From a phage: 64,000 bases of DNA. The DNA lies in the sequence record OZ346187.1; one strand, written 5' to 3'. Positions 749 through 52,195 of the stretch are shown in pieces; position 1 is the first letter of the stretch, and each line of letters opens with the position of its first letter. The notes below the pieces were generated by a model. That model searched no databases. It worked only from the letters and a program-made list of their open reading frames with translations, and was not told where the DNA came from. The translations under genes were made by a program, and so were the position numbers.

Positions 749-1435
749 ATGGCAGAGATTAAGTCGGATGTTAACCACATCCACACTCTGCCAGATTTTG
801 TTCAGGGAGGTCTTGACTACCTACCTGGAGATTTTCTGGCTGAGAAGGTTAATTTAGTCACATTCTTAACCGTATACCTTAAAAGGTTGGAGGATGTTGA
901 TAAGATGCTGGTAGGTTTGGCTGAAGGAAGATTGCTTAACAATGCCAGCGGAAGATACCTTGACGAAGTTGGTAATCAACTTGGTATTCTTAGGAATGGA
1001 CTTTCAGATGCTGATTTTCGTGCCACACTAATTATTCAGCAGGCCGCAGCATCAAGGGGCGGGACTCGCGAAGATGTCATCTCCACCTTGCGACAATTGT
1101 TCGGAAGAGACAATTTCGATACGTGGAAAGGAGACAACTTCAGGTTTGACATAAATATTAGAAAAACTTGCTTTGACATATTGCAGTCTATCGATCAGAT
1201 CTTAGATATGCTACCATTGCCTTGTCATTTGCGTCTTACAGAATCGCAAGGGCAAGCTTTTGGTTTTGAAGGGGACTCTACAGCTCTGGGCTTCGGATCA
1301 GTGTGGGAAGAAAACCAATTCGGAGTTGGTGGGCTGGCTACTTTGCTATATGTTCCTGACGTAAGACCTGATTGGGACACCACAACCATTTATTGTGAAA
1401 GTATTACAGTAAACGCAACTAGACAGGAGGGTTAA
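749..1435 (+). CDS. hypothetical virion-module protein (228 aa)
   Basis: ATG start, tightly packed with neighbours in the structural block; no diagnostic motif. Confidence 0.5.
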   Translation: MAEIKSDVNHIHTLPDFVQGGLDYLPGDFLAEKVNLVTFLTVYLKRLEDVDKMLVGLAEGRLLNNASGRYLDEVGNQLGILRNGLSDADFRATLIIQQAAASRGGTREDVISTLRQLFGRDNFDTWKGDNFRFDINIRKTCFDILQSIDQILDMLPLPCHLRLTESQGQAFGFEGDSTALGFGSVWEENQFGVGGLATLLYVPDVRPDWDTTTIYCESITVNATRQEG

Positions 1436-3507
1436 TGGCAACAGCTGTTTTTAAACCTTACCGTGATTACTCTACAATGGCTGCACAGTTTCATTACCGC
1501 ACAGTTCAGGATACTGCCGTTCCTGGTAGAGATTATGATCATGTTGAGGGCGATGTAACTATCCCAGTTGGGGCAACCAGTATTGAGATCCCAGTGGAAA
1601 TTGTTGACAAATTACCCAACAGGTTGCCAAGAAGCTTCTTTATGGAGTTTTCATCAAAATCTCAAGGAGTGATGATTGGAACACAAAGGGCGAAATGTAC
1701 AATAGTTTCAGATGAGAATCTTGACAGGATATCTTGGGATACTGTTGAGGAGAGAATGTTTCACCCAAGATATTGGGTTACAACCACTCAGCAGACTGAA
1801 AGTACCTGTATTGTTGCAGATAACAACTGTTGTATTAACCGTTTAGTGTCAAGAACATATGGAGGTATGGCTGGGTGCATTTGGGAAACAGTTGACAAGT
1901 ATGACCATTTCGGTATTGGGTTTGATGATCACTATGAGATGAGAAACACCAAGCTTTGGTTCAGAATGTCAATAACCAACGCCAGCAACTTCTCCACTCC
2001 TGAAAAGATGATTATGACTGTAGACCTTGTTGATGGCACAATCATCTATGTTCCTTTAGCTCAATATGCTGTCAGCATCTCAGAGGATAAAAATGTTGCA
2101 GAAATTCATATTGATTTTGAGGACTGCGTCGGGATGGACCAGAACAACAACATGATGGGTGTTGATCCTCGGCAGGTGAGAAGGATTTTAATACCACTTA
2201 TGCCTAAAGACTGGGTAAGTAATAGCACAGATCCAAGAACGGAAAATGTAGAGTGTGAGTTGCGCCTAGATCTGCTTCAGCCAGACACAGGCTGGAAAAT
2301 GATGCAACTTAATAATATCCAGGTGAGAGAGCACGACGTTGGGATCTGCACCGCATATGACGATATGTGGAACGTGTCCCCTTTAAGGGTGTTGAACAAT
2401 ATCAAGCGTCTGGGCTATACCGGAACCATAAACCATTATGTTGGTATGAGTCATTATTATGACTACACATGGTCAGGAACCCAATGGTCTATAAACAGAA
2501 CAGGAGCGCTAAACGCTGCAGCTTATAAATGGCATGATGATTTTATGTACAATGCCAAACGACATAACTTCGACGTTATGCAATCTGTAAGTTTTGAGCT
2601 TTTCAGCGATGCCTGCCCGTTGGAATGGACCCAAAGAGACTGGAACGATAACTACGCTAAAACAGGGTATACACCTTGTAGCTACCTCCTGTCTCCAACC
2701 ATTGAAGAGGGTATGAATTTCCTTACTGCAGTATTTAAGAATTTTGCATCAGCCGCTATGAGAAACAACCTGCCAGTGATTATGCAGGTTGGTGAACCGT
2801 GGTGGTGGTACAATACCGATACTCGTAGACCTTGTATTTATGATTACCCTACAAAACAGGCGTTTTATGATGAGACAGGCGAGTATGCATTAGATATTGG
2901 GACTATTGACGATCCTAAAACTGGCGGTGTTTACGATAAGTATGTAGCATTTTGTCGTGGTAAGCTTGGCGCTCGTATTGCTGCTATTTCAAAGGCAATA
3001 AAGGCACACGCTGCATCAGCTCAGATGACAGCTCTGCTGTTTTTCCCAACCATTATGGAAACCGAGCTTACGCAAAAGCTTAACCTTGCTGACCAATATA
3101 AAAAGGAAGCAGGTGCTCTTGATTTCTTCTGCACCGAGTGCTACGATTGGGTGATGCAGGGAGGTATTGAAAAGGCAAAAGAGTCTGTAAACATACCTAT
3201 CGTTAAGTTAGGTTGGCAACCGTCTGAAATACAATACCTTGCAGGGTTCGTTCCTAGTAAAGAGCTTGCTCCGGTATATGGTTACGACCCAACTAGGAAT
3301 TACCAAGAATTTTTATGGAGATGTATTTGCGGAAACATGGCAACTATAGAGTATAGATACCCTGAGGTAAAACAGTATGTGTGGGCATACCCGCAAGTAA
3401 TGTCTGACAGCATCACTGTTACCGCTAGAGATTCTACCGTGCTTCATATGGGGCAGGTTGCTCTGAAAGGGTATGTAGAAGATGTTGTCCCGCCAGACTT
3501 CTCATAA
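1435..3507 (+). CDS. putative tail/baseplate structural protein (690 aa)
   Basis: ATG overlaps upstream stop (TAATG) with GGAGGG upstream; large ORF directly upstream of fibre genes; function inferred from position only. Confidence 0.55.
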   Translation: MATAVFKPYRDYSTMAAQFHYRTVQDTAVPGRDYDHVEGDVTIPVGATSIEIPVEIVDKLPNRLPRSFFMEFSSKSQGVMIGTQRAKCTIVSDENLDRISWDTVEERMFHPRYWVTTTQQTESTCIVADNNCCINRLVSRTYGGMAGCIWETVDKYDHFGIGFDDHYEMRNTKLWFRMSITNASNFSTPEKMIMTVDLVDGTIIYVPLAQYAVSISEDKNVAEIHIDFEDCVGMDQNNNMMGVDPRQVRRILIPLMPKDWVSNSTDPRTENVECELRLDLLQPDTGWKMMQLNNIQVREHDVGICTAYDDMWNVSPLRVLNNIKRLGYTGTINHYVGMSHYYDYTWSGTQWSINRTGALNAAAYKWHDDFMYNAKRHNFDVMQSVSFELFSDACPLEWTQRDWNDNYAKTGYTPCSYLLSPTIEEGMNFLTAVFKNFASAAMRNNLPVIMQVGEPWWWYNTDTRRPCIYDYPTKQAFYDETGEYALDIGTIDDPKTGGVYDKYVAFCRGKLGARIAAISKAIKAHAASAQMTALLFFPTIMETELTQKLNLADQYKKEAGALDFFCTECYDWVMQGGIEKAKESVNIPIVKLGWQPSEIQYLAGFVPSKELAPVYGYDPTRNYQEFLWRCICGNMATIEYRYPEVKQYVWAYPQVMSDSITVTARDSTVLHMGQVALKGYVEDVVPPDFS

Positions 3508-3519
3508 TCAGGAGATAAA

Positions 3520-4560
3520 ATGTCAAAACCTAGTTTTCCATTAGAGATTTGGGCAGAGGAGGATCAGGTTCTGCCTAACACCCACAGACAGAACAGGCTA
3601 CGCCCGATTGATGATTTGTGGAGAAAAGGTTGGGATCTTGGTCAAAAGCCCTCATGTGAAGAACTTAACTATATTTTCAATATGCTCGGAACTTGGGCAA
3701 AATACATTGCTGACGAGCAGATCCCCGCTCAAGAAGGCCGTTATCTGGTACGTGATAATAACTTGAGTGATCTTTTGAACATTCCTGTTGCCCGTAGAAA
3801 CCTTGGGATTATTACTAAGGAAGAGGCAGACGCCAGGTATGTAAAAGTTACAGGTGATACAATGACAGGCCCATTGGGTTTGCAACGTATCAACTTTAAA
3901 GCTGCAGAGTCAGATAAGGCTTGGATAGAGACAACTATTGGCCCAGATAAGACAACTCTCGACTTTGGGTTAAGTGATAATACCGGGTCGTTTGATGATG
4001 GTGGTACATCTACAGTGGATGCGTTCCGTTGGAGATTCCAGCCAACTCAGCCGGATATTAATCCAGAGTTCACTTTGATGTACCTTAACGCGATCACGGC
4101 TAACCGTGCGCTGTTGAAAGTGGTAGGCAATGTTGAAGTTGTCGATAACATGAGGTGCAATAACCTTACTATCAGCAATACAGCGACATTCACCAACTGT
4201 AATGTGGCTAGTCAGTTGACGGCTGGGTCAGTGTATGTTAATGGTGGTGCAAGTTGTGACAGTATGGTTGTAAGAAGCCAGCACTGTGTTGTCGGTAACA
4301 GAAATGTGGTTCGCTCTGTGAACGGAGTGACGGCTAACGGTAACGGTGATGTAACGATCACTATCCCGCAGACAGGTGTGCAAGACATCAGAATCGGTGC
4401 AAGACTTGTGGACGGAGTTTCTGAATCTCCAATCCGCAACGGCTACGTTGTCACAGGCTGGCATTTCGGTGACAAAAAAGAGATGCGTGGTTCAACCTAC
4501 TGGGCAGGACCTTTACAAAAACTTGTAAATGGTCAATGGATCACTGTTAATTATGCATAG
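3520..4560 (+). CDS. putative tail fibre / receptor-binding protein, paralog 1 (346 aa)
   Basis: RBS AGGAGA; N-terminal PLEIWA motif and C-terminal KLVNGQWITVNYA shared with ORF 5575-6618; Gly/Thr/Asn-rich central region. Confidence 0.6.
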   Translation: MSKPSFPLEIWAEEDQVLPNTHRQNRLRPIDDLWRKGWDLGQKPSCEELNYIFNMLGTWAKYIADEQIPAQEGRYLVRDNNLSDLLNIPVARRNLGIITKEEADARYVKVTGDTMTGPLGLQRINFKAAESDKAWIETTIGPDKTTLDFGLSDNTGSFDDGGTSTVDAFRWRFQPTQPDINPEFTLMYLNAITANRALLKVVGNVEVVDNMRCNNLTISNTATFTNCNVASQLTAGSVYVNGGASCDSMVVRSQHCVVGNRNVVRSVNGVTANGNGDVTITIPQTGVQDIRIGARLVDGVSESPIRNGYVVTGWHFGDKKEMRGSTYWAGPLQKLVNGQWITVNYA

Positions 4561-30607: not shown

Positions 30608-30945
30608 GTTTGTGGAGAAATATCGTTAACTACGTGTGTGGCAATCCGACTCCTGAAGAGAAGGATGTTGTGATTCACGATTTTACTAAAAGATCTCGTG
30701 AAAAAGATTTACTGCTAACAAAGGTGACCGATAAAGATCCTGCAGTAGGGGACTGGGCAGGTTTTGCGTTTACATCGGACAAATACACCTTTAACAAAGG
30801 TGACTACCTTGTTGTGGATTTTAACGAAGACATTGAGGGTGCTGAACCTTACTATCAAACCCTTATTGTTGCAGGGTGTGTTAATCTCTCTGCAGGTATG
30901 CACAGTTTGATTCTTTTTGAGCTTGACTCTGAAGACCTTGAGTAG
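30604..30945 (+). CDS. hypothetical protein (113 aa)
   Basis: ATG overlapping helicase stop. Confidence 0.45.
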   Translation: MSLWRNIVNYVCGNPTPEEKDVVIHDFTKRSREKDLLLTKVTDKDPAVGDWAGFAFTSDKYTFNKGDYLVVDFNEDIEGAEPYYQTLIVAGCVNLSAGMHSLILFELDSEDLE

Positions 30946-39400: not shown

Positions 39401-39886
39401 TATTGCGTTACCGTCCCTTCTGGAGCAATCATTGTGAGAAGGAATGGTAAAGTGGCAGTGTGCGGTAACTGTAATAACGCCAAAGCTTACTCTTCTGTAG
39501 CAGGCAAGGAGATTTCCCGTAACGATGGTAAACCTATCACGTATGGGGTTATGTATGGGGCACAAAAAGATAAAGTTGCAGATATGCTGGACATCTCCCC
39601 AGAGTTGGGACAAAGGGTAATCGATGCACTCTGGGATGCCAACCCAGGTCTTAAGGGGCGCAAAGAGGATCTGGAGAAATTCTGGGAAGCAACAGGTAAG
39701 AAGTTTATCTACTCTTTTGATGGTCATGCTATCTGGACCCGATCTAAACACTCTTTACTTAATGCATACCAACAAAATGGCGGTGCATCGTTGTGTGACT
39801 TAGTTGGAATACTCATGCACCACCAGATGGTGAAGCGTGGGTGGTACGATGAAGGTGTTCGTCGTATTATTTATTACCATAAATAA
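36488..39886 (+). CDS. family A (Pol I/T7-like) DNA polymerase with 3'-5' exonuclease domain, interrupted by an intein (1132 aa)
   Basis: Exo I-like NFDFEASGL at the N-terminus; motif A-like IDGSNLEQL followed by GDAH; motif B-like RNDGKPITYGVMYG after the insertion. Confidence 0.85.
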   Translation: MSMWNFDFEASGLLDEEDLYYHCGLFKELNKNNFMLFLPINDRSHYSEEEVEKAKQFMLAKQDIYPSCSVRIADFSQLEWWLTGNSDWSPTSLSCHNCFSYDFILMEKLSGIHFDMFRDPKCMGTINNHQVNLFDTLPMSRILWPDRPLPKGCPDSVYNPVTKRMQQVGPHGLMAWGYALGNQKVKIDDWRNLPLWKYVDRVFEDVIIQELLWKELVAESKGVFYGKSDMQNFMYDPAKEKPKGFKKITWKNALRRGMLQHFLMELQARQGVYFDIDGAIALRDRCDAWMKEIADRVEPQLPLKELSMSQRPKFPEKPFNQDGTISNNGWKWLKDKLGYPVDMSALEFKAPPKRAFTSTGDVSKMGIKWCEEMGCKDPDKMADFLRGYIKGTSTPQPLPKELMDQAISDLQQKRMPDCKIPMKISNQDDIKRYLISAGWLPTMWRTKDVTKDSKKKALPDADVDARVYAYMDELLESEYCDLIINFWNKTDAKFQTTVHKFRSFPNSERIKKEVFGKIRRKARALITSPQLKDTFGHLCPNLEKLNGEMAKDIVLWLSLRNRRSVLDPIKEDKVDTGLLNHPRLKIDHKLPAKSSGLTNTSRQKHSICANMPKPSPKVVMGKEMRSLWGVPPGYFEIGIDGSNLEQLIGAWGAFEFDNGLYYDVVSNGDAHCYSGDTQILTEKGWVRFEDLDPGTQVFQYDHNTSSMNLVTPLNYVKRSYCGDMYHFHNSSVDFMVTDQHRMLTVDHRSNKLFEDLAKDLKAGKGSNSGRRFIHAAEFYGNTTLSPAQVNLLIAIHDDGHLHTNKDGSIVCRIQVGKGRKVATLLDTFSALSLSYVEQSGKTTKGGLLARRFQFHVPSWVFEFLDNNKDFTYNLMNLDKESKNLFIASLSNWDGWVSSEGGKVAYYSQAECRKKSVEVVSALATQCGLRNNTVAIHKKGRAVQHRITIGSKQRAGLLTLSKESVEVSGSLVYCVTVPSGAIIVRRNGKVAVCGNCNNAKAYSSVAGKEISRNDGKPITYGVMYGAQKDKVADMLDISPELGQRVIDALWDANPGLKGRKEDLEKFWEATGKKFIYSFDGHAIWTRSKHSLLNAYQQNGGASLCDLVGILMHHQMVKRGWYDEGVRRIIYYHK
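38501..39469 (+). mobile_element. intein with LAGLIDADG-like homing endonuclease domain inserted in the DNA polymerase (323 aa)
   Basis: In-frame insertion between GDAH and motif B; starts CYSGDTQILTEKG (Hint block A), ends ...VYCVTVPSGAIIVRRNGKVAVCGN then Cys +1; internal LLIAIHDDGH and FIASLSNWDGW resemble LAGLIDADG motifs. Confidence 0.65.
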
Positions 39887-40153
39887 CATTGTGGCTTCAT
39901 AGAGTAATCTATGTCGAATAACCTCTTTAACTGCGGGAAGCCTAAACCTTATGGCAAGGTAATCCGCAACGAAGCGCTCAAAAGAGCGAACGCTCAGAGG
40001 CCATTCCGAAAGGAAGTAGACCAGCAAGTGCGGTCGAAATGGGAGGATTCCTGTGGTTGCTTATCATAGGAATATGAGATGGTCCGATCCTACGTGAAAA
40101 CGTATGGCTATGCACGTAATGGTGCGGGGTAGCTTAACGACCTACCTGAACTA

Positions 40154-45486: not shown

Positions 45487-45684
45487 ATGATTTATCGAAT
45501 CCGTGTAAGAGAAGATGCACCAGGCTGTTACTTTGACTGGCGTGGGTGGTGGTTTCTCCACCCAATGGATGGACTCACAGATAGAATGCTGGATGCTGCC
45601 CTTTATACAGATACCGACATAGAATATAATCTCTATCTGAAGGACGGTATAGATAACGGTCTATTTGAAGCAATTCCTGTGTAA
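45487..45684 (+). CDS. hypothetical protein (65 aa)
   Basis: AGGAGA RBS. Confidence 0.4.
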   Translation: MIYRIRVREDAPGCYFDWRGWWFLHPMDGLTDRMLDAALYTDTDIEYNLYLKDGIDNGLFEAIPV

Positions 45685-45752
45685 GAGACTGTGATAGCCA
45701 TGTTTTATGATCTTCCTGTAGCACCACCACCTGTTGAACCTGGAGAACTAAG

Positions 45753-46172
45753 ATGATCTATGAAATGCCAAAACTGATTCGTGACGATGCCCAAAACCAC
45801 ACCATTATTATGGGTAAACGCATGAATATCCTTTGCCGTAACGATTTCTGTGGTGTAGAATACGTTGCAGACTACTTCGGTGAGAATGGTAAACACCCTG
45901 TTCAGTTCTTCCTTGACCATGAGGATAACATTATCTGGGAGTTTGAAACTGAAGATATCCGCAACCTCTTCATCTTCCTCGGTGTCAAGGTTAAGGCCAA
46001 TTTCGCGGAAGGTGAGTGCGACGATTGTGGATTTTATGAGGTGACAGACTTCTATCTCCCGAGTGGCAAGAACATTTACTATGAGAGTCACTTCGGAAAC
46101 ACCAACATGCCTCAAAGCTGGGAAGAATTTTTCAGTATCGTAGAAGAGGAGCTGGCATACCGTGATTATTGA
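45753..46172 (+). CDS. hypothetical Cys-containing protein (139 aa)
   Basis: ORF with RBS. Confidence 0.45.
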   Translation: MIYEMPKLIRDDAQNHTIIMGKRMNILCRNDFCGVEYVADYFGENGKHPVQFFLDHEDNIIWEFETEDIRNLFIFLGVKVKANFAEGECDDCGFYEVTDFYLPSGKNIYYESHFGNTNMPQSWEEFFSIVEEELAYRDY

Positions 46173-46620
46173 TACTGTAAAGGGAGATTTAATCTCCCTT
46201 TTTAAGAGCGGTGCTGGTCACCTAATCCACGGTTGTAACTGCTTCCACACAATGGGTAAGGGCATAGCAAAACAGATTGCCCGTGAGTTTCCTCAAGCAT
46301 TGTCAGCCGACAAAGAGACCAGACACGGTTGCCTAAGTAAACTGGGTGCGTTCTCCCGATGGGAGCACTTATCTCCGAGAGGTATTGTCTACGGAATCAA
46401 TCTGTATACTCAGTTCTACCCAGGGCCTAATGCTGAATATTTCTCAATCCTGAAAGGCTTTGAGCTAGTCAATGAGGTATTCGAGGGATCGACTTTACCA
46501 TTCTACATCCCTAAGATCGGATGCGGCATAGGCGGTTTGAAGTGGGAGCACGTAGAGGACGTTATTAACCTCGCCACTTTTGATATAGATATTATCGTGG
46601 TGGAGTACAAAGAGTGTTGA
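46162..46620 (+). CDS. macrodomain protein of the DarG/TARG1 type (152 aa)
   Basis: N-terminal GDL...AGHLIHGCNCFHTMGKGIAKQIAREFP matches the GNLL...NTVN..GVMGKGIA...FP signature of TARG1/DarG-type ADP-ribose-processing macrodomains; GTG start. Confidence 0.55.
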   Translation: MIIDTVKGDLISLFKSGAGHLIHGCNCFHTMGKGIAKQIAREFPQALSADKETRHGCLSKLGAFSRWEHLSPRGIVYGINLYTQFYPGPNAEYFSILKGFELVNEVFEGSTLPFYIPKIGCGIGGLKWEHVEDVINLATFDIDIIVVEYKEC

Positions 46621-46645
46621 CAGCTGACTTTTGAGATGGTATAGT
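46617..46645 (+). promoter_or_regulatory. sigma70-like promoter (TTGACA-17-TATAGT)
   Basis: -35 overlaps upstream TGA stop; upstream of 46677. Confidence 0.45.
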
Positions 46646-46676
46646 CACCACAACGATTGAGAGAGGGAGCACCACT

Positions 46677-46877
46677 ATGGAGACTAAAATCTTAATTCTG
46701 GCTGTGATAGATACGACCGAAGGGGCCGTGTTCGAATCTGCAGGAGGGTATTTCTACCTGCCCTACGGAAAAATAACTTCCGAACCGAGTAAAGATTCAA
46801 TCCTTAAAGTGTTCCCTTGTGCTTTCTGGCTGGAGATTCTGGTAGAAGATTGCAGAGGATTGGGGAGAGAATTATGA
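46677..46877 (+). CDS. hypothetical protein (66 aa)
   Basis: GAGAGGGAG RBS. Confidence 0.4.
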   Translation: METKILILAVIDTTEGAVFESAGGYFYLPYGKITSEPSKDSILKVFPCAFWLEILVEDCRGLGREL

Positions 46878-47068
46878 GAAACAAGAAAGAGCTTTACTCT
46901 GGCGAGTGGATCAACGATCAACAGGTCGGAGAGGTAACCTGCTTCCGGTGTTTTACTCGGTACAATCTTAAAACTGCACCAAAAAGTGTTCCAAAGACTG
47001 ACGGTTATTACATAAAAGAACCTCATTGCCCAAAATGTAAATGCCGATTGTACTGGAGCAATCTATAA
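46874..47068 (+). CDS. small zinc-ribbon-like protein (64 aa)
   Basis: ATG at 46874; CFRC and CPKCKC Cys pairs. Confidence 0.4.
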   Translation: MRNKKELYSGEWINDQQVGEVTCFRCFTRYNLKTAPKSVPKTDGYYIKEPHCPKCKCRLYWSNL

Positions 47069-47072
47069 GAGG

Positions 47073-47100
47073 TTGACATCTGAAAACTGCAGTGTATAGT
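47073..47100 (+). promoter_or_regulatory. sigma70-like promoter (TTGACA-16-TATAGT)
   Basis: Hexamers upstream of 47132. Confidence 0.4.
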
Positions 47101-47131
47101 ATACACATAAACTAACAGAGAGCGATGTATT

Positions 47132-47323
47132 ATGGTAATTTTTAACCGGGATGGTATCATAGTTAGACAGCACCCGTTCCTTGAATACTATCAAATTGAG
47201 CAATGGTGCTACGGGGATTGCAGTCACTCCTATGGGCAAAGTTGGGGATATCGTACAGTTTTTGAATCAACAGACCTTGACAAAGTAAGACAGAAAGTTT
47301 TAGAACTTATTAACAACAAGTGA
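47132..47323 (+). CDS. hypothetical protein (63 aa)
   Basis: ORF downstream of promoter. Confidence 0.4.
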   Translation: MVIFNRDGIIVRQHPFLEYYQIEQWCYGDCSHSYGQSWGYRTVFESTDLDKVRQKVLELINNK

Positions 47324-47332
47324 GTATGATAT

Positions 47333-47665
47333 ATGGTAACATTAGAAAGACGTAAAGCTATCGCCGCCACACTGGCAGACATCTTTTGGGATTGCAACTT
47401 AAAAGATACCAGAAATTGTGGCGCATCTGTAGATGTATTATTCCCACGGCCCACCATTGTTGCAATGGGAAACCTGTTAAACGTAGTGTACGGAGCATGG
47501 GACAAAGAAGGTGGATTCTATATCTGGCAACCTGACTACAGAGCCTGGAAAGAGGTAAGGGGTGCGGTTGACTTTGGGCCTGCAAGTGCTAAGATGGATG
47601 GCTGGGAAATTTATGTTGGAAACGACATGAAGCTGAAAGGCGAGATTGTTTACTGGTTACCTTAA
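47333..47665 (+). CDS. hypothetical protein (110 aa)
   Basis: ORF with RBS. Confidence 0.45.
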   Translation: MVTLERRKAIAATLADIFWDCNLKDTRNCGASVDVLFPRPTIVAMGNLLNVVYGAWDKEGGFYIWQPDYRAWKEVRGAVDFGPASAKMDGWEIYVGNDMKLKGEIVYWLP

Positions 47666-47685
47666 GAGAATGCAGGAGATAAAGT

Positions 47686-47931
47686 ATGAACAAAGGGTGG
47701 ACATTTGTAGACGGCGTTGAAAACATGCCTCTAGGAAAGTATATTGTAGCCATGGCAGATGAGAATGGCAAGGTTGATTTCGGAGCTTGCGAGGTTGTTC
47801 TTGCAGGATCTGGTGACTATGCTCACAAAACTGGGATAATTAACGGTCATTTCTACTTTGATTACAACCCTGTTGTGGCGTATATGGCTATGCCAGAGTT
47901 CGAGCTCCCAAAGGAGGGTGCGGATGTTTAA
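47686..47931 (+). CDS. hypothetical protein (81 aa)
   Basis: AGGAGA RBS. Confidence 0.45.
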   Translation: MNKGWTFVDGVENMPLGKYIVAMADENGKVDFGACEVVLAGSGDYAHKTGIINGHFYFDYNPVVAYMAMPEFELPKEGADV

Positions 47932-48121
47932 GCTTAAATCTGCATGGAACATCGCTGTGGGGGACGAGATCCGCATCCCAGGTGGAAAGACCATTATGAA
48001 GATATCTCGTATCGAGTACGAAGGTGATCGTGTATTTCATATCTTTGCAGAAGATGGTCGAGAAATTTATATACAGGCAGGCTCTCACATCTATATTCGT
48101 AAGAAAGGGGACGACAAATGA
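47924..48121 (+). CDS. hypothetical protein (65 aa)
   Basis: ATG at 47924 after GGAGGG (track start 47858). Confidence 0.4.
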   Translation: MFKLKSAWNIAVGDEIRIPGGKTIMKISRIEYEGDRVFHIFAEDGREIYIQAGSHIYIRKKGDDK

Positions 48122-48447
48122 CAGAGATCATCATTTCAACTGCAGGGTATGTGTTCCTGACAATCATTGCACTGACCATTTTGGTGGTGGTATATGGAAT
48201 TGTTATTCTCCCTATTCTTGAGACAATTAGTTTGTGTCGGTGTTGGAGAAAGGCTTACGGTCCACAGCCGTGGAAGGACTGGCCCCACCTGGTGCACATA
48301 GCGTTCTCTTATGCTTATGATCACGCCAGCAGTGCATGCATAACCGGGTATCACGCCCACAACTGGAGCTGGGAAGGGTTGAGGAAATGGAATGTTACAA
48401 AGACCATACCTCTGCGCATGTACAAACCTAAAAACAAAGACAGCTGA
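48118..48447 (+). CDS. membrane protein (109 aa)
   Basis: N-terminal long hydrophobic segment IIISTAGYVFLTIIALTILVVVYGIVILPIL; last gene of the plus block. Confidence 0.45.
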   Translation: MTEIIISTAGYVFLTIIALTILVVVYGIVILPILETISLCRCWRKAYGPQPWKDWPHLVHIAFSYAYDHASSACITGYHAHNWSWEGLRKWNVTKTIPLRMYKPKNKDS

Positions 48448-48476
48448 TACTTGAAAATCCCTGGCATATCAAGTGT

Positions 48477-48512
48477 AAGGAGGATTTCTAAAATGGATTT
48501 CCTCCTTTTGAT
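48477..48512 (+). terminator. terminator-like hairpin at end of plus block
   Basis: aaggagga ... tcctcctt stem with about 15-nt loop followed by ttgatattt. Confidence 0.35.
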
Positions 48513-48747
48513 ATTTCACCGGGCCAGATATTTTAAAATTCTTAGAAAATCAGGTCTTTGAAATGAAAAACAGATCGAGTACCGAAAGAGGATGTACAAA
48601 TTTTCTGATAATAATGGACTTATTGTTATAAAAGGTCAGAGGTAAGCTGGGAAAGTTCTGGTAGAAGGGTGAGAGTATGTGCGGAAAAATCTGGAATAGT
48701 GACTTAAAGTACGGTGCGAACGATAAGGAATTGAGCAGCACATCTTA

Positions 48748-49150
48748 TCGTGCCTGTATTTTGTGTGGATGAATGAGAATACCTATCATTGTGAGAACCA
48801 TTATCATTACGGGCAATTTAACAGTACCGATTATGCGCACCACTGGCGATACATACAGGGATTGATAACATGGGTTACTGTTTACGCACATAACAATTGT
48901 ATTTCTTACTATTTGTGTGGGCGTTTAGACGTTGACGGTCAGAAGTCTGCAGGTTAATATCTAATCTATTGGCTGCTAACTATATCCCACACAAATAGTA
49001 AGAAATACAATTGTTATGTGCGTAAACAGTAACCCATGTTATCAATCCCTGTATGCATGCCAGTGGTGCGCATAATGGGTATTATGTTAAATTGCCCGTA
49101 ATGATAATGGTTCTCACAATGATAGGTATTCTCATTCATCCACACAAAAT
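48748..49150. repeat. large imperfect inverted repeat (arms about 170 bp, spacer about 64 bp)
   Basis: 48748-48921 is the near-exact reverse complement of 48986-49150 (identical for the outer 66 nt and the inner about 66 nt; one indel-containing patch); track ORFs 48763-48957(+) and 49014-49205(-) are mirror images of it. Confidence 0.85.
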
Positions 49151-49379
49151 AGATTGCAAATGTTGTGCCACTGTGTGAACGGCCTGGCCTATTAATTTGC
49201 CTCACTGCCTTGATATTTGAGAATTATTATAAGAATGAGAAGTATTCCCATTTCGTCCGCCTGGCAGCACTCCTGTAGGTCCTGCAAGGACTCTAGCTGA
49301 AAGCTAGACCCTTCGGGCCTCCCTGCAGGTCAGGTCAAAATCGTGGTAGAATTGGGCCTGTTCAGATATTTCTGGCTGA

Positions 49380-50587
49380 CTCTTCAGGTCTGTGTGGGAA
49401 AAGCCAACCTCTCCGGCGGGGCATGGGGTCATGACGGGAAAATTGCAGGTCAATTAAAAAATTTACGTGGTGTATGAAGCGCTCTTCAGGTAAGGCAGGT
49501 ATTATGGGATGAAACCCTCTTCAGGCAATGATATTTGTGGGTGTGATATTTGCTGGAAAGCCAGATATGACGGGACTCCCGGCGGGGCAGGGGTAGTACA
49601 GACAGGGAAAATATGGAGGATGTGGTTGGGTAAATTGATCAGGCAGGTAGAGTATGGAATATGTTACAGGTATGTTAAATAGGGAGGCTGAATATCTGTA
49701 GGATTTGTGTGTAAAATCAAAGACTTAAGTGGTGTTGTGGTATTTTCTATAAATAATTCAAGTTTAATAGGTAATATTTGTCTCTATTCGCTTTGTGTGG
49801 TAAACAGATTCAGATGAGATTGGTTTACAAGTGTATACATAATATACAAATTAAAGATACAAGAAACCCCCCTCCCCCTTCGGCTACCATTCACCTTTTC
49901 CTCTGACTGGTACTTAAACACTTATTCAGACTCTTCAGGTTATCACCCATATATCATATGGCAGTGACTGGTGTCCTCCGGCCCCTCTTTCGTCACCCGT
50001 CCGCTTCGCCATGCTAATGCCATAGCCAATGGTTCGGTTGTTCACCCTGTTCACTCAGGTGTATCTCCATACCCCTTCAAACCGAAGAGAACAGAAAACC
50101 CGAATTACTCGGTAAAAGAAAAGAGAAGAACTTAATTTTATCAGGATAGGCAAGAATGTCAAGGCATGACTGCTCACTAAACAAGCAAACAGTCATGTGT
50201 GGAAGGTAAGTGATTGTGGTGGTAGGAAATTTAGTTGAAAGATGTGTTATAGGTGCTTCCAGCACTTTAGCCGGGCAGCTAATTGTGTGTCAGTCCAGCG
50301 GTTCATCCTCTACTTCACTGAAATCAATGTTCATGGTCTCTTCCCAACCATCGATCTCAGCACAAGAGTGGAGTTCTTTAGGGTTTACTCCCAAAGCCTC
50401 AGCAACAGAGTCTATATTTAACACCTCTGGCAGGTATGATTCATCGAATTCAAGGTAAATCAGGCCACGAGTGTTGTCAGCTCCACCAAATATCTCTATC
50501 TTCATGAAATCTCCTCTGGAAATGAGAGTGTGAACAGGGTTTTATACGTTCTAATGCACAGGAATTATACACGTTTGCCTCTTCAGG
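49380..50587. repeat. iteron-like direct repeats in non-coding DNA
   Basis: CTCTTCAGG at 49380, 49482, 49517, 49931, 50579; about 35-nt repeat ctcc(c)ggcggggca(t/g)ggg...gggaaaat at 49411 and 49577; AT-rich stretch 49741-49860; C-tract 49867-49878. Confidence 0.5.
50290..50505 (-). CDS. small acidic protein (71 aa)
   Basis: ORF, first of minus-strand small-gene array. Confidence 0.4.
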   Translation of the reverse strand: MKIEIFGGADNTRGLIYLEFDESYLPEVLNIDSVAEALGVNPKELHSCAEIDGWEETMNIDFSEVEDEPLD

Positions 50588-50626
50588 CCATGCTTTAGCA
50601 TGAGGAACCTGTGTGGGCTCGGTGCT

Positions 50627-51889: not shown

Positions 51890-52195
51890 TTATTCTACAG
51901 AGCGTTTGAACAGAATGTCTGCCTCAGACATGTGCTCAACCTCTTCTTCGATTTTAGCGCGACGTTTTTCAGCCTCATAGCGAATATCGAACTCGGTAGC
52001 CACCAGAGATTTGATGAATTTAGGAGAATACAGGTGATCCTGCTTCTCAACGAGAATGATATCCTTAATGGCATCTTTCAGATCTTTAATCTGAAGTTGG
52101 AGTTCTACCAGTTCTTCGATTGTTTTGCGAAGGCGATCACGCTCTGCAGTGTCAGAAGGAAGAGAGGTGAACAGTTCAACTTTAGATTTAGCCAT
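51890..52195 (-). CDS. coiled-coil protein (101 aa)
   Basis: ORF; charged heptad-rich sequence. Confidence 0.45.
   Translation of the reverse strand: MAKSKVELFTSLPSDTAERDRLRKTIEELVELQLQIKDLKDAIKDIILVEKQDHLYSPKFIKSLVATEFDIRYEAEKRRAKIEEEVEHMSEADILFKRSVE

Follow-up and report, generated by a model that had tools for sequence, protein, structure and literature searches.

A candidate early non-coding RNA gene in the gene-free region of rV5-like coliphages, and a reappraisal of the 9-mer repeats beside it

The rV5-like phages are among the most often isolated coliphages, and they are found in therapy cocktails as well as in the BASEL collection. In rV5, positions 104013-106618 have been described as having 'no observable ORFs' (open reading frames) and were drawn as a grey 'non-coding' box of 2.6 kb (Kropinski et al. 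2013, PMC3606486). The box is the biggest gene-free stretch of a genome that is 91.6% coding, it lies between two convergent units (genes 82-163 and genes 164 onwards), and the GC skew changes at 104425-105475, which the authors ascribed to the direction of transcription (PMC3606486). Bidirectional terminators, which the same authors thought should lie between genes 163 and 164, were not detected at that place, and the replisome genes that they describe include a family-A polymerase and a gp4-type helicase-primase (PMC3606486). Regarding non-coding RNAs, a precedent in an intergenic gap of an rV5-like phage is pseudo-ToxI of Pectobacterium phage phiTE (Vequintavirinae), an anti-defence RNA with tandem 36-nt repeats (PMC3475682).

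Here we report on the corresponding locus of the phage genome OZ346187.1, of which a stretch of 64,000 nucleotides was analysed (hereafter the window, with position 1 as its first letter). A first-pass annotation of this window had singled out positions 49200-50600 as a candidate replication origin or regulatory hub, on account of a five-fold repeated 9-mer, other short repeats, an AT-rich block and a C-tract next to a large inverted repeat. We arrive, with a probability of about 0.6, at another reading, in which a block at 49866-50128 would be a transcribed non-coding RNA gene, read on the minus strand, and the 9-mers would not be origin iterons. By alignment, the locus is the surviving right half of the known, unexplained rV5 box, at an identical place, gene-free and between convergent units. 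The gene-free stretch covers here 48448-50289; the rV5 box corresponds to 968-3571 of the oriented rV5 locus (L003), the alignment of the window to the box begins at L003 2261, and the match to rV5 runs from ~105324 downwards, with 90.5% identity over 49150-50300. The two cases differ in that the present genome retains only the right 1.3 kb, and in that the rV5 description only notes the gap, the promoter, the RNA and the conserved block presented below not being reported there (PMC3606486). The 2.5 kb around the finding match 122 phage records, all of them Vequintavirus (rV5-like coliphages), at 80-99% identity. Among them are about 18-19 UNVERIFIED 'Campylobacter phage' records (MG0656xx), which are rV5-like coliphage genomes and probably mislabelled or contaminant assemblies.

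The window was aligned with 14 annotated relatives and later also with five metagenomic or IMG/VR contigs and with MaxTheCat. Over the block, 49866-50128, pairwise identity reaches 0.991, and it is 0.979 in the adjoining 50129-50205; towards the left, it amounts to 0.776 in an AT-rich spacer (49741-49865), 0.917 at 49441-49740, 0.615 in the indel-rich zone 49260-49440 and 0.949 at 48922-49259. For comparison, pairwise identity in five flanking genes is 0.961 at the first, 0.976 at the second and 0.871 at the third codon position. Only nine of the 263 block sites are variable (3.4%), against ~35% of the third codon positions of the flanking genes and 17-24% of sites in the two non-coding flanks. 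The most divergent of the relatives are L025 and L031. The metagenomic contig L025 matches 49866-50205 at 97.6% and the flanks at just 59-86%, and in the sequence L031, 260 of the 263 block positions are unchanged (98.9%) though it is 80% identical overall. In GenBank, the block is present in 118 phage records at an identity of at least 97.2%. On the strand of the candidate RNA (minus), its composition is rich in G (32%) and poor in C (17%).

This conservation is not that of a coding sequence, and the region is, on the evidence of its substitution patterns, truly non-coding. In five flanking ORFs, substitutions are strongly 3-periodic (p between 9e-5 and 5e-12), and in the three non-coding segments, which contain indels of 1-2 nt, they are not (p=0.88, 0.83 and 0.26); the value of 0.83 belongs to 49441-49740, where 71 of 300 sites vary and 1- and 2-nt indels occur. 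The block has stops in all six frames and a synonymous excess in none of them, and the nine ORFs listed mechanically have no PHROG match, the control gene being recovered at E 1.9e-52. The view that unannotated small proteins are encoded in this stretch could draw on the automated annotations of Mangalyan, PMBT16, APECc02 and JEP1, which call coding sequences of 30-60 codons there. These results make it barely credible, as does the 2-nt deletion that a 62-codon ORF has in L011 and L012. It fares no better at the C6TC5 tract (49867-49878; G5AG6 on the RNA strand), which the first-pass annotation had rightly placed at 49867 and which forms the 3' edge of the block: its length varies among genomes (C5-7 T C5-6), which shifts the frame of the 21-codon AUG-initiated ORF that overlaps it, inside the listed minus-strand ORF 49784-49921, and so marks that ORF as non-coding. 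Annotators should hence be cautious, the ORFs of 30-60 codons called in several GenBank records not being supported. The earlier statement that 49200-50600 holds no convincing ORF stands up to 50289 and fails beyond, where a real gene of 71 aa lies on the minus strand (50290-50505; phrog_12108, E 1.9e-52). This gene is found in 118 phage records, is confined to the genus, and its substitutions are distributed as 25, 4 and 7 over the codon phases (p=2e-5).

Immediately upstream of the block lies a predicted sigma-70 promoter on the minus strand (50135-50162), with 11 of 12 matches and an extended -10 TG. It is composed of a -35 hexamer TTGACA (50162-50157), a 16-nt spacer, the TG (50143-50142) and a -10 hexamer TAAAAT (50140-50135), and its predicted start site is at ~50128, which corresponds to ~104175 on the + strand of the rV5 record DQ832317. 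Just six sites of the window reach 11/12 matches together with the TG, and all six are oriented like the local genes. Across 22 sequences, 13 of the 37 positions of 50129-50165 vary and none of these is in the hexamers or the TG (P=3.2e-4), so that outside these elements 13 of 23 positions are variable. In L031, the spacer has been rewritten and measures 18 nt instead of 16, and three of the six bases between the -10 hexamer and the start are changed. The hexamers are thus kept at 16-18 nt from each other and invariant under divergence, as is expected of a sigma-70 promoter. Near-perfect conservation resumes at 50128, within ~2 nt of the predicted start, and it stops at the G5AG6 tract. What chiefly leads us to prefer an RNA gene over a DNA site is that the conserved entity starts where a transcript would start. 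The suggestion that the repeats could be promoters for a non-host polymerase finds no echo here, since the sole convincing promoter is of the host sigma-70 type. Directly upstream of the -35 hexamer, a conserved hairpin with an 8-bp stem, CATGACTG-N17-CAGTCATG, occupies 50165-50197 on the minus strand; the sole change in its stem arms (50196, in L031) gives a G-U pair on the minus strand and an A-C mismatch on the plus strand. This hairpin may serve as an operator, or it may be where the upstream three-gene operon has its 3' end.

The candidate is probably an early RNA gene of ~263 nt, undescribed and genus-wide, as judged from conservation, composition and promoter. At this locus, two early gene clusters would be transcribed towards each other, and the functional core would be the minus-strand unit, not the 9-mers. 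The sigma-70 early promoter (50162-50135) would drive an RNA of ~263 nt, G-rich and untranslated, that would start at ~50128 and extend to the G5AG6 tract (49878-49867). We infer from these elements that the RNA is made, where its ends are and that its termination depends on Rho. The minus-strand fold predicts a long 5' hairpin and a pairing of the pyrimidine-rich 5' end with the G-tract, a helix that would close the molecule. Such 5'-3' end pairing, as well as the size class, recalls the closed-end RNAs of the 6S RNA type, from which the block differs by a fold that is branched and not rod-like, has no covariation support and has no Rfam match. The modelled folds gave two weak, strand-specific signals. 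In a consensus-fold scan, z falls below -2 solely on the minus strand, at 50000-50199 (z -2.3 to -2.7). Moreover, the 12 polymorphic sites tend to fall outside predicted pairs on the minus strand (mean pairing probability 0.37 versus 0.64, P=0.014), and on the plus strand they show no such tendency (P=0.57).

Several results weigh against an RNA gene. The single-sequence fold of the block is no more stable than those of shuffled sequences (z=-0.94). Double changes occur at 0 of the 86 predicted pairs, the 18 distinct sequences being ~98-100% identical to the window and thus almost identical among themselves, which accounts for this absence. At the 3' edge, a scan of 49850-49900 gave no intrinsic terminator, and only UU is kept after the G-tract. 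Outside the genus, blastn at E<=10 gave no homologue of the block with which its structure could be compared, and within the window the best complementarity to possible mRNA targets or partners is of 11-12 nt, which is chance level. In the literature library that was searched, no transcriptome of a Vequintavirus was found. Finally, the block would be equally conserved if it acted at the DNA level, for instance as a site where a replisome or proteins assemble, and against this stand only the way in which the promoter is conserved and the strand-specific positions of the polymorphisms.

Wider searches placed the block within the genus and in no described family. No Rfam family reached its gathering score (best matches of 11-22 bits against thresholds of 45-120), and at E up to 10 just two chance-level Rfam matches were obtained. 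Scans of IMG/VR and of metagenomes returned only rV5-like contigs and chance hits, and what was hit in the GTDB genome collection amounts to chance matches of 20 nt in GC-rich bacteria. Among 5,426 E. coli genomes, no match to the block was found at E<=1, by which mimicry of a host sequence is rejected. In the left half of the rV5 box, no paralogue of the block was detected, the alignment score being at shuffle level. We observed that GUGAACAGGGU of the candidate RNA (50044-50054) is complementary to 11 nt (50530-50540) located 25-35 nt upstream of the start codon of the 71-aa gene; such complementarity is at chance level for the window (E ~3).

As to function, we tentatively propose, at somewhat short of even odds, a stable trans-acting early RNA that would bind a host or phage protein, for instance as a takeover factor or an anti-defence decoy. 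Trans action is favoured because loops and stems are equally constrained, the ends are closed and the RNA would have its own strong early promoter. A cis-acting role, in which an R-loop or pre-primer would open the adjacent AT-rich spacer for replication, has an outside chance, and the remaining share of probability goes to other RNA roles or to the block not being an RNA gene at all. A type III antitoxin-like RNA (ToxI or pseudo-ToxI) was considered and rejected, the window having neither a tandem array of 34-36 nt nor an Rfam match; phiTE pseudo-ToxI adjoins tRNAs and the terminase gene, is not syntenic with the block and has no sequence or Rfam similarity to it. A CsrA-type sponge was likewise rejected, GGA motifs not being enriched in either candidate RNA.

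On the left of the spacer, an untranslated and moderately constrained flank (49330-49740, plus strand) has a composition of G 32% and C 14% and carries three copies of the 9-mer, CTCTTCAGG, and eleven CAGG. Structure was looked for at 48920-49860, where no scanning window reached z<-2 on either strand, and the search for a consensus structure in 49330-49740 gave no signal on either of the two strands scanned. This flank would have been built from short local duplications, the source of CTCTTCAGG, CAGGT, TGTGTG and a two-copy element of 45 nt. Both this unit and the block are G-rich and C-poor in their own sense, and their sense RNAs would be expected to resist Rho. Rho loads onto untranslated, C-rich and G-poor RNA. 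Once past the AT-rich spacer, any transcript would be untranslated, rich in C and poor in G, as is typical of a Rho loading zone, and such a zone would account for there being no intrinsic terminator between the convergent units, at the G-tract included, and for the rV5 authors not having found the terminators that they expected.

The same compositions could be read without any dedicated product: the region would just be a buffer and termination zone for the convergent early units, in which small genes have decayed and short stretches have been duplicated, and Rho would load at the block onto plus-strand transcripts. Indeed, the plus strand of the block and the minus strand of 49330-49740 are both C-rich and G-poor, the short repeats resemble local duplications, hairpin cassettes come and go, and the bidirectional terminators expected between genes 163 and 164 were not found (PMC3606486). 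We nevertheless consider this quite unlikely, since Rho sites need a composition and not a sequence, which leaves the identity of 0.991 and the preservation of the hexamers alone unexplained, and since the non-coding flanks, varying at 17-24% of sites versus ~35% of third codon positions, are not free-running junk.

The AT-rich spacer itself (49741-49865) lies between the two convergent G-rich units and has 69-75% A+T in every variant. The AT-rich block reported at 49741-49860 is genuine, with 74% A+T over the 132 nt before the C-tract. Its left ~48 nt are conserved, and its right ~70 nt are substituted in L004, L005, L006, L008 and L025. A T4-type late promoter was tried here and rejected: TATAAATA, found at 49748, has 2 copies in the window versus 2.3 expected.

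The human mitochondrial element CSBII consists of G5-6AG7-8 followed by T's and acts through an RNA-DNA G-quadruplex and an R-loop, and ColE1 RNA II requires a contact between a G-run and a C-run. The G5AG6TTT tract of the block presumably resembles CSBII. A transcription-primed origin can be imagined, in which the transcript from the promoter at 50162 would form an R-loop on the C-rich template and synthesis would start in the AT-rich spacer. The G5AG6 tract would stall the polymerase or anchor the hybrid (or a hybrid G-quadruplex), and the family-A polymerase and gp4-like primase-helicase would use the 3' end of the RNA or the displaced strand. To our knowledge, descriptions of the G-quadruplex effect concern T7-like RNA polymerases and do not extend to that of E. 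coli, and here it is the host polymerase that would transcribe. Consistent with such an origin, the promoter reads towards the AT-rich segment, the predicted transcript is G-rich and contains a G-run, and relatives keep the order of promoter, 263-nt G-rich RNA, G5AG6 and 125-130 bp at 69-75% A+T, though not the sequence in the spacer's right half. Promoter, G-rich transcript, G-run and AT-rich segment are shared with ColE1 RNA II, the T7 primary origin (phi1.1A/B promoters and an AT-rich segment) and the mitochondrial LSP-CSBII-OH arrangement. rV5 encodes a family-A polymerase and a gp4-type helicase-primase, and the box is the largest gene-free stretch of a 91.6% coding genome (PMC3606486). 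The replisome is thus of a type that matches such origins. In contrast with those origins, the present arrangement sits at a skew maximum between convergent transcription units, so that departing forks would meet early transcription head-on on both sides, and it would be transcribed by the host RNA polymerase rather than by a T7-type polymerase. No RNA-DNA transition, primase site or initiator is known, and an R-loop primer is not obviously in need of 263 near-invariant nucleotides, the conservation being much stricter than priming seems to require. We therefore regard a primed origin as unlikely; any origin at this locus would nonetheless be of this transcription-primed kind and not of the iteron kind.

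Iteron origins, as known from plasmids and lambdoid phages, have in common with the present locus short same-strand repeats near an AT-rich stretch. The five plus-strand copies of CTCTTCAGG on which the origin proposal was built are all where they had been reported, within 1.2 kb, and they are non-random: with a sixth copy at 30652 on the minus strand, the 64 kb window contains six, for a shuffle mean of 0.62, and 0 of 100 shuffles reach six. However, the copies are separated by 102, 35, 414 and 648 nt and are neither in tandem nor phased. Copy 1 (49380-49388) is part of the 12-mer GACTCTTCAGGT, which is found again at 49929, that is, around copy 4; copies 2 (49482-49490) and 3 (49517-49525) are the first and second units of a 35-nt local tandem duplication (49474-49493 and 49509-49528); copy 4 (49931-49939) is within the conserved block, where the candidate RNA reads CCUGAAGAG; and copy 5 (50579-50587) is in the 121-nt gap between two real minus-strand genes, where it overlaps the -35 area of an extended -10, TGTATAAT (50562-50555, minus strand). 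Copies 1 and 3 each precede one copy of the 45-nt element. The 9-mers occur in the relatives too, and none of the copies outside the block is invariant across the genomes. At 5 of 45 variable positions versus 60 of 300 in the flanks, they are conserved no better than their surroundings.

A classical iteron origin, in which an initiator bound to the CTCTTCAGG copies would melt the AT-rich block, is very unlikely in the light of these data. The number of same-strand copies, their presence in relatives and the position between copies 3 and 4 of an AT-rich segment (69-75% A+T) that could serve as unwinding element speak for it. Yet these are irregularly spaced 9-mers and not direct repeats of 17-22 bp, no tandem family exists in the window, two of the copies come from a 35-nt local duplication and two are inside bigger repeated units, one copy is within the conserved RNA block and one between two genes, and they are not preferentially conserved. 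No gene recognisable as an initiator adjoins the repeats, the neighbours of the locus being small genus-restricted genes of no assigned function. DnaA boxes are not enriched either, with three near-matches in 2.3 kb (two of which are one site duplicated by the inverted repeat) for a background of 0.52 per kb. Of the architecture that had suggested an origin, the large inverted repeat is private to this genome, the palindromes are variable, the 9-mers are irregular and half of the AT-rich block is replaceable. The cumulative GC skew, whose minimum had been expected to mark an origin, has at the locus a maximum, which coincides with convergent transcription and is confounded by it. What survives of the regulatory hub is a loose description: the region is non-coding, under selection and unusual for the genome. 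We read the 9-mers, from their arrangement, as products of local duplication in an untranslated tract and not as a phased set of binding sites. Two other candidates were rejected for CTCTTCAGG: as restriction sites (overlap with Eco57I CTGAAG and EarI CTCTTC), the sites not being avoided elsewhere in the window, and as a fixed promoter element, a -10-like hexamer being at the proper distance in only 2 of 5 copies.

What comes closest to iterons in the non-coding box of this family is an array in the half that is missing from the window. This sole true tandem array of the box is composed of ~16-nt units ending in ACTGTTYAC (minus strand), with ~10 units in rV5 (L003 ~1950-2120) and 1-4 in other relatives; it is also present in L016. 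Copy numbers thus range from 1 to ~10 among relatives, which is a further point against an iteron origin. A conserved box, GATGATAAGCCATGCCATTCGTTTGCATGA, follows the array.

The other repeats noted in the region are real as well. The element reported in two copies of 35 nt (49411 and 49577) has the core CCGGCGGGGCA(T/G)GGG at 49413 and 49579, and the alignment of 49408-49449 with 49575-49619, both on the plus strand, scores 36, where shuffled sequences average 14.8 and do not exceed 27. Copy 1 (CTCYCCGGCGGGGCA...GGGAAAAT) has lost its 3' half (~49430-49447) in most relatives. Also enriched are the plus-strand words TGTGTG, CAGGT, GATATTTG and GGCAGGTA. The palindrome tctagc-tgaaa-gctaga is present, as had been described, at 49292-49308; it belongs, with the cccttcggg that follows, to a variable hairpin cassette (49286-49320) found only in the window, L001, L002 and L013 and missing or replaced in the remaining aligned relatives. 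A cassette of ~46 nt (CTGGCTATGCCAG, GGTGACnnnGGTCACC, CCCTTCGGG) occurs at differing sites in L031, in L003 (~1855-1900) and in the window (49286-49320), and in L031 this 46-nt cassette is inserted directly before copy 5 of CTCTTCAGG (equivalent of window 50578). Its appearance is that of a small hairpin module that moves or recombines.

The large inverted repeat (48757-49151; arms 48757-48921 and 48986-49151, 64-nt loop) marks a rearrangement. Relatives carry only its right arm, and no phage record spans the junction, which is made of a 216-nt piece matching phage FV3 in inverted orientation and of a 165-nt inverted copy of 48986-49151. The segment 48554-48756, inverted with respect to its FV3 homologue, forms the left edge of a gap of ~12.8 kb. 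Window positions 45500-48553 correspond to MaxTheCat 75417-78467, and the window from 48914 onwards to MaxTheCat from 91275 onwards; the intervening 12.8 kb, present in all relatives, have no counterpart anywhere in the window; they contain the left 1.2 kb of the box and 36 small ORFs, one of them a 'putative holin'. Either a deletion with inverted duplication truly took place here, or the assembly is chimeric. The arms end on TTTGTGTGG / CCACACAAA, and all rearrangement breakpoints are on TGTGTGG / CCACACA words. These words are located at 48762, 48914, 48987(-), 49140(-), 49391, 49794, 50196, 50610 and 50951, 9 of the 31 copies of the window being concentrated at the locus for 10.6 expected in the entire window. 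Three small genes (50290, 50627 and 50836) also have minus-strand CACACA words directly after their stop codons.

A group I intron is located at 39871-40106 on the plus strand (RF00028, 64.7 bits, over the gathering score) and fits the intron-split large terminase gene of rV5. At least 12 GenBank genomes of the genus start or stop within ~3 kb of the locus, at differing positions (49262, 49766 and others): isim, bov10K2, slur12, slur16, magaca, 241Ecol014PP, HdK5, EdH4, ECP2303, Gotham, C12 and A13b. The SPP1 pac region is a conserved region of ~300 bp, and pac sites are usually in or beside the small terminase gene. The size and conservation of the block recall SPP1 pac, and with these record ends one might think of a pac site where terminase initiates packaging. 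We hold this to be highly improbable, since PhageTerm reported 'circular permutated' ends, not of the pac type, in four Vequintavirus isolates at about 1,000-3,300x (PMC8407724), since the record ends differ in position and since the terminase-type intron is ~10 kb away. Because PhageTerm reports permuted ends, the record ends near 49260-49770 are probably assembly breaks, perhaps at the C-tract or in the indel-rich zone.

Among the neighbouring genes, 51890-52195 (minus strand) encodes a protein of 101 aa annotated as DsbA-like or as a transcriptional regulator, with 100% protein identity in nearly all Vequintavirus records. In other genera of Vequintavirinae, this protein is 42-60% identical and no gene-free region adjoins it; the search for the block by synteny in PVP-SE1 and 4MG thus found the DsbA-like neighbour without an adjoining gene-free region.

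The gene-free 2.6 kb box of the rV5-like phages, unexplained since 2013, is narrowed here to a single 263-nt candidate unit with a defined promoter. If this unit acts in trans, it would represent a new, strictly conserved family of phage RNAs made in the first minutes of infection, and a possible takeover or anti-defence factor. If it serves instead as a pre-primer, this phage group would gain a first origin, and mitochondrial priming a counterpart in bacterial viruses.

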